From the NCBI RefSeq assembly GCF_058153355.1, contig NZ_CM177019.1: 64,000 nucleotides of DNA; one strand, written 5' to 3'. Position 1 is the stretch's first letter; the number at the start of each line of letters is the position of its first letter. A program made the translations under genes and the position numbers. This document shows, in pieces, positions 50,757-52,471 of this stretch. The notes under the pieces are model-generated. The model saw nothing but the letters and a program-made list of their open reading frames with translations, was not told the DNA's origin and did no database searches.

Positions 50757-51149
50757 TCAGAATGGTTTTGTTGCCATCAGTTCGTAATATCCGGCGCTCC
50801 ATGTGTCATATTTTCTGAACCATTTTTCTGTATACTGTTTCCTGGCGATGAGTCTGCGCAGTCGTCTGATTGTTCGCTGGTGTGCGCGGGTATACTCTGT
50901 GGTTGATTCTCCTCGTTTCCATATCTCATTCCCGTTGAAGATAAAACGCTTGTCAGGATGGCGTTGTCGGAATCCTGAACGTTCAAAAGCGCGGGTGGTC
51001 ATAAAGAATGCCAGGTAACGAATTGCCGTTTTTCGGGTGAGGCATTTTTTTGTTGTTCCGTGGCGTGTTACAAAAAATAACGGGCCGACGGGGGTATCAT
51101 GTTTCTGTAGTGCCAGGTCAATGGCGCTGGCGGTGCGGTTGTCGATCAT
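50757..51149 (-). CDS. hypothetical basic phage protein (130 aa)
   Basis: ORF, Arg/Lys-rich C-terminus; 4-nt overlap with next gene. Confidence 0.4.
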   Translation of the reverse strand: MIDNRTASAIDLALQKHDTPVGPLFFVTRHGTTKKCLTRKTAIRYLAFFMTTRAFERSGFRQRHPDKRFIFNGNEIWKRGESTTEYTRAHQRTIRRLRRLIARKQYTEKWFRKYDTWSAGYYELMATKPF

Positions 51150-51364
51150 TTCTTTATTTCTCCCGAATAACGTTCATGACTCATTACTTCCCAGTTCCGG
51201 CCGTCGTCTTTCGATAACAGCCGCCAGCGACGGTTAACCTTCAGACTGAGATATCCGGTGCGCTGTATCCGATGCGGAAATATCCGTCGGCATCTGTACC
51301 GCCGCAGGACCAGCAACGCCTGCTGGTGGACCCACTCAGGAATTCGTGTTGCTGTTAATGTCAC
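51146..51364 (-). CDS. hypothetical basic phage protein (72 aa)
   Basis: ORF in operon-like overlap arrangement. Confidence 0.35.
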   Translation of the reverse strand: MTLTATRIPEWVHQQALLVLRRYRCRRIFPHRIQRTGYLSLKVNRRWRLLSKDDGRNWEVMSHERYSGEIKK

Positions 51365-51551
51365 TGGTTTCCTCCTGAGCAGGTGCTGTTATCTGATACC
51401 CCGCTCTTTCTGCCAGCCGTATGAATGTATCCATGCTGGCAATCAGCTCTCCATCGCGGACTTTGCAGACATCTGTTACCTGGCCATTTTCAATTGTCAT
51501 AACGATCTGCACTTTTTCGTGCACAACAGATACAGGGGATAAATTAGCCAT
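51336..51551 (-). CDS. hypothetical phage protein (71 aa)
   Basis: ORF; start shares ATG/stop overlap with upstream gene. Confidence 0.35.
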   Translation of the reverse strand: MANLSPVSVVHEKVQIVMTIENGQVTDVCKVRDGELIASMDTFIRLAERAGYQITAPAQEETSDINSNTNS

Positions 51552-51910
51552 CAGTTAATTCCTCCGCTGATATATTTTTCTTTCGCGTAATCAATAACCT
51601 CTTGTAAAAGGTTGTCTATAATTAACTTTCCGGTTTCAGCCTGGTATTCAGTATGTTGATTAATCCCGATAGCATTCTGGTATGCAGTTCGGATTTCTGT
51701 TTCACCCTCCACTCGACCCAATTCACCACGGGTAATACCTTCAAAGCGCAACAGTAACTGGTTTATAAACTGTTCTGTTATTTCTATGGTCGTAATGTTC
51801 CCATCCAGAAGGTCAACAATAAGCAGATCACCACCTGTTTTACGTTTTATTCGATGGAGTGCCGCAACAGCTATACGGCGACGATATGTATTAATGGGTT
51901 CATGTGTCAT
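51551..51910 (-). CDS. hypothetical phage protein (119 aa)
   Basis: ORF with ATG overlapping the stop of the upstream small ORF. Confidence 0.45.
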   Translation of the reverse strand: MTHEPINTYRRRIAVAALHRIKRKTGGDLLIVDLLDGNITTIEITEQFINQLLLRFEGITRGELGRVEGETEIRTAYQNAIGINQHTEYQAETGKLIIDNLLQEVIDYAKEKYISGGIN

Positions 51911-51913
51911 TTG

Positions 51914-52027
51914 TTATTTCCCGTATGCTTTACGCAGAAATAAGCAGGCAATATGCATGTAATTTTCACCGTATTGTGCAATAAGGCTGGCGGTCTTGTG
52001 TGATGCCATATTCTTTATAAAAGTCAT
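51914..52027 (-). CDS. 37-aa hypothetical small protein
   Basis: Strong SD AGGAGG 7 nt upstream of ATG; MTFIKNMASHKTASLIAQYGENYMHIACLFLRKAYGK. Confidence 0.4.
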   Translation of the reverse strand: MTFIKNMASHKTASLIAQYGENYMHIACLFLRKAYGK

Positions 52028-52099
52028 AATAAAGCCTCCTGTGGATTAAGGTTGTAACAATCCCCGGCGATAAAACCGTAATAAACATTCAGGGAATAT

Positions 52100-52471
52100 T
52101 TATTGTGATTGCGCTAATTCTTTTTCGGCAGCAGCTTTTGCATATTCACATGCAAAATTCAGAATTTCGCTGCCAAGTACTTTTGTTTCGTGATTACTGG
52201 ACATATGTAATACCTGTGTTGCATGCAATAAATGATAAACATTTACCGCAAATGAATCAGGCTCCAGACAAATGCCTTCGTAATTATCTTGCTGTGAGGT
52301 TGTTTCTGTCATTGCTCCTGAAGTGCATGCGAGCCTGTTTTTGACAATTCTCTTTCCTCTAATCACTATATCGGCAACATCTATTGCCTTTACAACCTCC
52401 GGGAGAAGTTCCTGGTTTGTATAATCAAAGTTATCAACATGGAGAACAGTTATGTTTTCGAACTTTTTCAT
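52100..52471 (-). CDS. hypothetical phage protein (123 aa)
   Basis: ORF on the leftward strand. Confidence 0.45.
   Translation of the reverse strand: MKKFENITVLHVDNFDYTNQELLPEVVKAIDVADIVIRGKRIVKNRLACTSGAMTETTSQQDNYEGICLEPDSFAVNVYHLLHATQVLHMSSNHETKVLGSEILNFACEYAKAAAEKELAQSQ

Follow-up and report, generated by a model that had tools for sequence, protein, structure and literature searches.

Six small minus-strand genes of a P27-like prophage: a conserved five-gene cassette with a predicted minimal RelE/ParE-superfamily protein, and a mosaic companion

A run of six small genes on the minus strand was studied in a 64,000-nucleotide stretch of DNA (contig NZ_CM177019.1 of assembly GCF_058153355.1), referred to here as the window. 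The run belongs to a decaying P27-like lambdoid prophage at yecE. An earlier reading made from the letters alone (the sequence-only reading) had described six consecutive genes at this place, and all six were present at those coordinates in the mechanical list of open reading frames (ORFs). They are named here after the lengths of their products.

52100-52471, minus strand: p123, 123 aa, ATG start
51914-52027, minus strand: p37, 37 aa, ATG start
51551-51910, minus strand: p119, 119 aa, ATG start
51336-51551, minus strand: p71, 71 aa, ATG start
51146-51364, minus strand: p72, 72 aa, GTG start
50757-51149, minus strand: p130, 130 aa, ATG start

The genes had been said to be linked by overlapping start and stop codons. 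This was true of three of the five junctions, where p72 and p130 share 4 nt (ATGA), p71 and p72 share 29 nt, and p119 and p71 share 1 nt; the other two are not overlapping, with spacers of 3 nt between p37 and p119 and of 72 nt between p123 and p37. Ahead of each start lies a purine-rich Shine-Dalgarno-like motif, that of p119 (GGGAA) being weak. Two of the proteins had been called strongly basic, and the computed pI values agree (10.8 for p130 and 11.3 for p72); p37, at 9.7, is basic as well, and p71, at 4.5, is acidic. Five of the six proteins matched PHROG families, with E values from 5e-25 to 2e-82.

Related loci were taken from IMG/VR by a scan for p72, and the ORFs of the 80 loci obtained were subjected to iterative hidden Markov model (HMM) searches. 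Each of p37, p119, p71 and p72 was present in all 80 loci and p130 in 79, while close homologues of p123 (at least 89% identity) were present in 23. The junctions also recurred: the ATGA of p72/p130 in 77 of 79 loci, the 29-nt overlap of p71/p72 in 63 of 80, and the 1-nt overlap of p119/p71 in 42 of 80. Gene order and junctions persisted although the identity between neighbours fell to 30-60%. When compared with diverged copies, all five genes other than p123 gave a median ratio of nonsynonymous to synonymous changes (pN/pS) of 0.32-0.56, with 0.39 for p37; these genes are under purifying selection. Because of the presence counts, the junctions and the pN/pS values in the related loci, the unit is a conserved, translationally coupled five-gene cassette (p37-p119-p71-p72-p130), carried as a block by prophages of Enterobacteriaceae, to which p123 is a mosaic add-on.

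These results bear on the possibility that some or all of the small ORFs, p37 especially, are chance frames in non-coding or decaying prophage DNA. The prophage is indeed decaying, its int gene being frameshifted and its SPFH gene truncated, and p37 is left out by both the PGAP and the phiP27 annotation. Five ORFs kept in 79-80 of 80 loci down to such low identities, with constrained pN/pS, Shine-Dalgarno-like motifs, conserved junctions and strong PHROG matches, make this explanation extremely improbable.

The cassette is not invariant. About 30 of the 80 loci carry an insertion of about 174-336 nt between p37 and p119, which in the loci inspected contains an extra gene of about 66-74 aa (phrog_8959 at 3192-3416 of locus L044). 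In one contig near-identical to the window (L007, 2547-3865), about 1.3 kb is inserted between p119 and p71, truncating p71, and p130 is truncated too. Several E. coli genomes have this prophage region interrupted by copies of IS600. Part of the region was found in 386 of 5426 complete E. coli genomes (~7%), and at least 80% of it in 37. Dozens of complete E. coli genomes hold sequence that matches across the region at ~97-98% identity. In none of those in the collection, however, is at least 80% of the stretch 47500-55500 present in one place, so that the host could be a Shigella or an E. coli lineage not sampled there.

The sequence-only reading could name none of the six proteins. For five of them this stands, in that no function can yet be assigned, but p72 is a clear member of Pfam family PF24732 (ParE_like, 'ParE-like toxin domain'; E 1.4e-17, 63.9 bits against a cutoff of 24.4). 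It is labelled 'ParE family toxin-like protein' in RefSeq, and a homologue from a Klebsiella phage or prophage was independently named 'mRNA interferase HigB' by GenBank annotators. An exhaustive HMMER search of 1.84 billion cluster representatives gave only 54 relatives of p72, most of them ~55-110 aa long, and all 41 representatives tested matched PF24732 only. The family is marked by the signature P9 ... GYLS-x-V-x3-WRLLSKD-x-G-x2-W-x-LMSHE-x-Y, in which R48 is invariant, L50, S51, W58 and Y66 are at least 90% conserved, and W47 and H63 are conserved as well. The 2025 survey of the RelE/ParE superfamily by Gerdes lists 13 Pfam families, and PF24732 is not in its text (PMC11980606); p72 matched none of the 13. 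Sequence and profile searches of the PDB with p72 gave no detectable relative. Nothing specific was found in the literature on PF24732, on the early genes of phiP27 or on RelE-like early genes of phages.

The structure of p72 was predicted by AlphaFold2 as part of a p71-linker-p72 fusion, using an alignment of paired sequences and family representatives. The p72 part was modelled with high confidence (predicted local distance difference test, pLDDT, 91-96) as an alpha-beta-beta-beta-alpha protein with an N-terminal helix, a three-stranded sheet and a C-terminal helix. The fused model is not usable for the p71-p72 interface, since its predicted template modelling score (pTM) of 0.42 is uninformative owing to the linker. 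When the model was compared with the PDB by Foldseek, about 40 of the top 50 matches were RelE/ParE-superfamily toxins (E 0.14-2, TM 0.40-0.49 per target), among them GraT, HigB, YoeB, YafQ, HP0894, RelK, the RelE-like domain of Cami1 and, at rank 50, ParE2. Alignment of the p72 family with Proteus vulgaris HigB by hhalign (P 0.0013) placed p72 residues 5-50 on HigB residues 19-75, with SLKVNRRWRLL on SITVRANWRIT, and paired W47-R48 of p72 with W72-R73 of HigB. In HigB, Arg73 touches the scissile phosphate (PMC5027501). The conserved C-terminal H63-E64-x-Y66 lies in a segment, EVMSHERY, that resembles EVMTHKEY of E. coli HigB. Like the mRNA endonucleases HigB, GraT and RelE, p72 is predicted to combine a helix, an antiparallel sheet and a C-terminal element. 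With a match to a curated family model and the fold, though with a single N-terminal helix, p72 is by its predicted structure a minimal RelE/ParE-superfamily (BECR-fold) protein most like HigB; its RNase activity is putative.

The Pfam name would also suit a ParE-type poison of DNA gyrase, used by the phage to arrest host replication. ParE2 is among the Foldseek matches, and RNases and gyrase poisons of this superfamily are not separable by fold alone (PMC11980606). The names of the Pfam families do not separate the two activities either, so that the label ParE_like does not track function (PMC11980606). The best structural and profile matches of p72 are the ribosome-dependent RNases GraT, HigB, YoeB and YafQ. 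ParE toxins are without the catalytic residues of the BECR RNases (PMC11980606), whereas p72 has the invariant arginine at the position of HigB Arg73 and the C-terminal His/Glu/Tyr cluster. Moreover, p72 gave no match at E up to 1 with PF05016, which holds the gyrase-inhibitor subclusters, and is not closer to ParE. A gyrase poison is, on this evidence, an improbable identity for p72.

The gene upstream of p72 encodes p71, a member of phrog_340 (E 5e-25) with a weak match to the C-terminal part of an anti-repressor PHROG (E 2.3e-5). Its AlphaFold2 model (pLDDT 66-78) shows a beta-hairpin and a helix, with an acidic tail that is disordered. No Pfam match was obtained for p71 and 22 relatives, nor any NCBIfam or PDB profile match for p71 itself; PF27490 is precomputed on some p71 relatives.

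An acidic p71 upstream of a basic p72, with fitting sizes and overlapping genes, is the arrangement of a classical type II toxin-antitoxin (TA) module, in which p71 would be the antitoxin and p72 the RelE/ParE-fold toxin. Such a module, comparable to paaA2-parE2 in the CP-933P immunity region, could keep the prophage stable or abort superinfection by phages, and the two genes do occur together in all 80 cassette loci. The ParE_like match and the RefSeq name of p72 fit as well, and an addictive ParE module within a lambdoid prophage is on record (PMC8630535). That precedent, paaR2-paaA2-parE2 of CP-933P in E. coli O157:H7, resembles the present locus in having a toxin-fold gene after a gene for a small acidic protein, within a lambdoid prophage and near its immunity region (PMC8630535). 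There, however, the addictive TA pair is co-transcribed with a cI-like repressor (PMC8630535), whereas here a terminator-like hairpin and operator-like repeats part cI from the operon, p71 is separated from the putative promoter by four genes, null alleles of p71 stand beside intact p72, and ParE2 is only a distant structural match.

The family outside the cassette also speaks against an addiction module. Seven distant PF24732 genes were traced to early operons, in elements that are lambdoid, P2-like or of other kinds. Each of the seven lies behind a different, unrelated gene, and no p71 homologue is among these. The upstream genes encode an Rv2179c-like exonuclease, ParB-like proteins, a 76-aa unknown protein, Nmad5, Lar, a 49-aa ORF downstream of N, and a 125-aa unknown protein; the downstream genes are unrelated too, and none of p71, p119, p130 and p37 was found near the seven. 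A p71-like C-terminal domain hidden in the large upstream proteins was considered and rejected by hmmsearch at maximum sensitivity. One homologue of p72 occurs in phage Sortsne, among whose 62 annotated features there is no integrase. Conversely, phiP27 has a p71 homologue (L07) without p72. Because the PF24732 start overlaps the preceding gene by 4-20 nt in every unrelated context examined, whatever the upstream gene (L083-L091 and L092; start ~3001), obligatory translational coupling is suggested as a trait of the family.

Within the cassette loci, three (L026, at 2465-2674, L028 and L031) carry a nonsense allele of p71, a GAG-to-TAG change at the invariant Glu35 codon, with p72 and p130 intact. 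The p72 allele of these three also occurs beside intact p71 in 10 other loci. Two caveats apply to the nonsense alleles, as the operon is perhaps silent in lysogens and a 32-aa C-terminal fragment of p71 could still be made. In the window the start of p71 overlaps the stop of p119, which leaves no space ahead of p71 for a promoter or operator; p71 has no match to a DNA-binding or antitoxin domain, and neither p71 nor p72 matched a PADLOC or NCBIfam toxin-antitoxin model. Hence neither a family-wide cognate antitoxin, nor an autonomous autoregulated operon, nor a recognisable antitoxin domain was found, and loss of p71 is seen beside intact p72 in the three loci. The arrangement of HigB-HigA, with the toxin first and an HTH (helix-turn-helix) antitoxin downstream, is also absent, as p130 gave no match to an HTH or any other domain and its predicted structure matched neither HigA nor any other fold in the PDB. 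p72 is without a family-wide partner or a dedicated antidote, and we consider a classical TA module unlikely; p71 may be a lineage-specific partner or modulator of p72. Only one in-frame p71-p72 fusion was seen, a single 153-aa ORF (L046, 517-978) that may be natural or may be an artefact of an indel. Another apparent fusion, cluster representative P0205, was discarded, since it looks like an out-of-frame, over-extended ORF.

The remaining proteins gave fewer clues. p130, translationally coupled to p72 through the ATGA overlap, was modelled with confidence: a beta-meander is followed by a helix and a beta-hairpin, and the chain closes with a long C-terminal helix rich in Arg. H30, which lies in an RHG turn, is invariant, as are R39, Y86, H90 and R92. 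Its 225 relatives come from Escherichia, Shigella, Salmonella, Citrobacter, Enterobacter, Klebsiella, Raoultella, Kosakonia and allies; those with a name are all called 'hypothetical', and none has a Pfam domain. p119 belongs to phrog_1737 (E 8.5e-51), and in its AlphaFold2 model (pLDDT 74-91) the N-terminal helix is basic and the body mixes alpha and beta elements; a homologue goes by 'Fels-1 prophage-like protein' in one source. Two fold searches matched the models of p119 and p130 to no known structure. When every member of the p119, p130 and p71 alignments was scanned against Pfam, only isolated chance matches appeared.

p37 is a conserved microprotein of 32-38 aa ending in LRKAYG[RK], which we read from its sequence as a probable helix-Gly-helix hairpin of TPR-like pattern. 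No coding sequence is annotated at its position in RefSeq NZ_CP065613 or in phiP27. The acidic, mosaic p123, outside the conserved cassette, belongs to phrog_5451 (E 2e-82) and is homologous to L08 of phiP27, the two ORFs being near-identical on inspection. A kinship of p123 with the neighbouring HTH protein was considered, but BLASTP showed no similarity.

Sequence and profile searches of the PDB with p71, p130, p119 and p123 gave nothing. PADLOC gave no meaningful match among the six proteins, the only one being that of p119 with a type II restriction enzyme model (E 0.008, over 34 residues). Assignment to known recombination families would have told against uncharacterised effectors; no match of any of the six to Exo, Bet, Gam, Kil, Erf-type or other such proteins was found in Pfam, NCBIfam or PHROGs. 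After the profile searches against PDB sequences, five of the six are still uncharacterised candidates, as had been proposed.

The surroundings of the cassette are as follows.

53773-54012, divergent from the cI-like gene: cro-like gene, matching in position the cro-like gene of relatives
53290-53676, minus strand: cI-like repressor gene, 128 aa, matching in position the LexA-family repressor of relatives
53253-53285, minus strand: terminator-like hairpin, a 15-bp stem then a T-run, directly after the cI-like gene
53186-53239: operator-like inverted repeats (AACTAnCTnTAGTTA) ahead of the HTH gene, putative oL/pL
52600-53178, minus strand: HTH (XRE/DicA-like) gene, HTH_3 E 3.9e-12, DicA-like subfamily E 4.7e-12
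50508-50696, minus strand: 62-aa membrane protein, downstream in the same operon
49870-50511, minus strand: truncated SPFH lipoprotein, downstream in the same operon, Band_7 match
49008-49244, minus strand: xis, from the ORF list
48389-48952 (187 aa) and 47644-48432 (262 aa), minus strand: split P27-type integrase, adjoining chromosomal yecE

From the immunity region, the minus strand thus reads cI-like gene, terminator-like hairpin, HTH gene, p123, p37, p119, p71, p72, p130, 62-aa membrane protein, SPFH lipoprotein, small ORFs with relatives annotated DUF5406 and DUF4222, xis and int. The region had been placed between exo/bet/kil-type genes and the repressor, but this phage has no exo, bet or kil genes bracketing it; the cassette is bracketed by the HTH gene beside cI and by the SPFH lipoprotein gene, followed by xis and int. 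Its best phage match is phiP27. The chromosomal flank at 45600-47640 carries cmoA-cmoB-yecN-yecE and is 99% identical to E. coli, which agrees with integration at yecE, the site given for related Stx phages. The break between the two integrase ORFs is a frameshift located near residue 177 of the phiP27 integrase (437 aa); the prophage can probably no longer excise without help. Matches to phrog_1130 and Band_7 cover the downstream genes at 49870-50696. The SPFH/Band-7 product is 97% identical to L05 of phiP27 until it ends at residue 212 of 275; a phage HflK/C-like protein in an early-left operon could bear on FtsH-dependent control of lysogeny.

The HTH gene is the first of the leftward operon, and its real start is probably the ATG at ~53146. 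The operator-like repeat AACTAnCTnTAGTTA ahead of it recurs between cI and cro (53722-53742), and the hairpin separates cI from the leftward genes. Because these repeats are common to the region upstream of the HTH gene and to the cI-cro region, we infer that the six genes belong to a repressor-controlled leftward early (pL-type) operon. A consensus scan found 5 promoter-like sites inside the cassette against 7.0 expected in shuffled sequences. No Rfam hit above threshold was obtained in 49000-54500. A sub-threshold RefA9 hit over the terminator-like hairpin (53223-53283, plus strand; 31.7 bits against a gathering threshold of 49, E 0.055) is most likely due to chance. No paralogues of the cassette genes were found elsewhere in the window. 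A separate plus-strand ORF of 643 aa (55879-57810), with a low-complexity, repeat-containing translation and two near-identical stretches 'TTTTHPFLKIEVVNGKAV', looks like an antisense or spurious frame over other genes.

In its position between the immunity region and xis-int, the cassette resembles the pL accessory genes of lambdoid phages (kil, cIII, ral and sieB of lambda, the ea genes of P22, and L06-L08 of phiP27), which are likewise small, overlapping, mosaic and dispensable in some relatives. Unlike these cases, however, it shows no sequence or profile similarity to any named early-left gene of lambda or P22, and Red, Erf and Gam genes are missing from the region in the phage group of the window. 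phiP27 has homologues of p123, p37 and p71, but an unrelated 218-aa gene, L06, takes the place of p72 and p130, and p119 is missing. In its sequence (L002, 3669-4586) the p71 homologue is L07, and the unannotated p37 homologue lies within the ORF 4440-4586. In another locus (L072), a relative of L06, recognised by eye, stands between p119 and two tandem p71-like genes.

Other lineages show the same setting with different contents. One diverged lineage has, in this order, cI, a 137-aa gene, p37, a 74-aa gene, p119, p71, p72, p130, a 192-aa gene, xis and int; another lambdoid element has cI, N, further genes, ParE_like, further genes and int. As the cassette makes up almost all of the operon that runs from cI to xis-int in the diverged lineage, its proteins could be regulators of the phage programme (lysis-lysogeny, excision, antitermination or repressor control), with p72 a non-catalytic binder of RNA or the ribosome. 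The resemblance of p71 to the C-terminal part of an anti-repressor PHROG, the Arg/Lys-rich helices of p130 and p119, the want of a conserved equivalent of HigB His54 in p72, and the SPFH (HflK/C-like) protein encoded in the same operon would agree with this. On the other hand, profile scans of the five showed no domain typical of DNA-binding proteins or regulators, and the strict conservation of the polar residues R48, S51, H63 and Y66 is more like an active site. Moreover, p119, p72 and p130 are not essential regulators, because phiP27, annotated as a complete phage genome, is without them. A regulatory cassette is, in our judgement, not likely.

The reading we tentatively favour, and to which we would give a little less than an even chance, is that the cassette is the lytic-cycle accessory core of an early-left operon and carries a stand-alone RelE/HigB-like effector. 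Because it lies behind the post-cI terminator and the operator-like repeats shared with cI-cro, the cassette would probably be silent in the lysogen, and it would be expressed on induction or infection. p72 would then act as a stand-alone phage effector and not as half of an addiction module. From its fold and residues, it would bind the ribosomal A site or mRNA and, at an early point of lytic growth, cleave or block transcripts of the host; with the host already doomed, it would need no dedicated antitoxin. In this lineage p71 might modulate p72. The stand-alone, lytic-phase use is proposed from the varied upstream genes of the distant members and from phage Sortsne, in which no integrase is annotated. 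A host-takeover or anti-defence role for p72, as suggested by the sequence-only reading for genes of this region, is plausible.

Several points weigh against this reading. The Foldseek statistics are weak, with E at or above 0.14, partly owing to the fused-chain query; the hhalign match to HigB is modest, and the p72 family gave no alignment at all with E. coli RelE. Compared with HigB, GraT and RelE, p72 is ~20-30 residues shorter and lacks the first helix of the canonical toxins, having one N-terminal helix where they have two, and it is encoded in a long phage early operon and not in a two-gene one. The position of HigB His54 is Phe in p72, and the basic residues nearby are variable. Because of the missing helix and the lack of a conserved His54 equivalent, p72 may be catalytically dead. 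The charge, size, overlap and constant company of p71 and p72, discussed above, are what a TA pair would show. Repression of the operon by cI is read from sequence repeats, and the reading gives no function to p37, p119, p130 and p123.

A wider proposal may be made for the family. PF24732 would be a phage-borne fourteenth branch of the RelE/ParE superfamily, made up of minimal, antitoxin-less, HigB-like early effectors that are always coupled to an upstream gene and that cut or block host translation or counter ribosome-targeting defence toxins, with p71, p130, p119 and p37 as new partners tuning or targeting the activity. We regard this proposal as doubtful in its full extent.

The locus is not a new kind of system. 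Five of the six proteins are already catalogued in uncharacterised PHROG families, one of them also in a Pfam family, and together they are ordinary uncharacterised prophage early genes with one informative fold assignment. The cassette nevertheless supplies four conserved proteins without functional assignment, two of which (p119 and p130) have confident predicted structures, and it includes a previously unannotated 37-aa gene. The most interesting thread is a toxin-fold protein that is without an antitoxin and coupled to varied phage early genes throughout its family, and it is directly testable. If p72 is active and antidote-free, phages would have turned the fold of a TA toxin into an offensive early-gene weapon, and a phage-borne family unlisted among the 13 of the 2025 survey (PMC11980606) would be added to the RelE/ParE superfamily.

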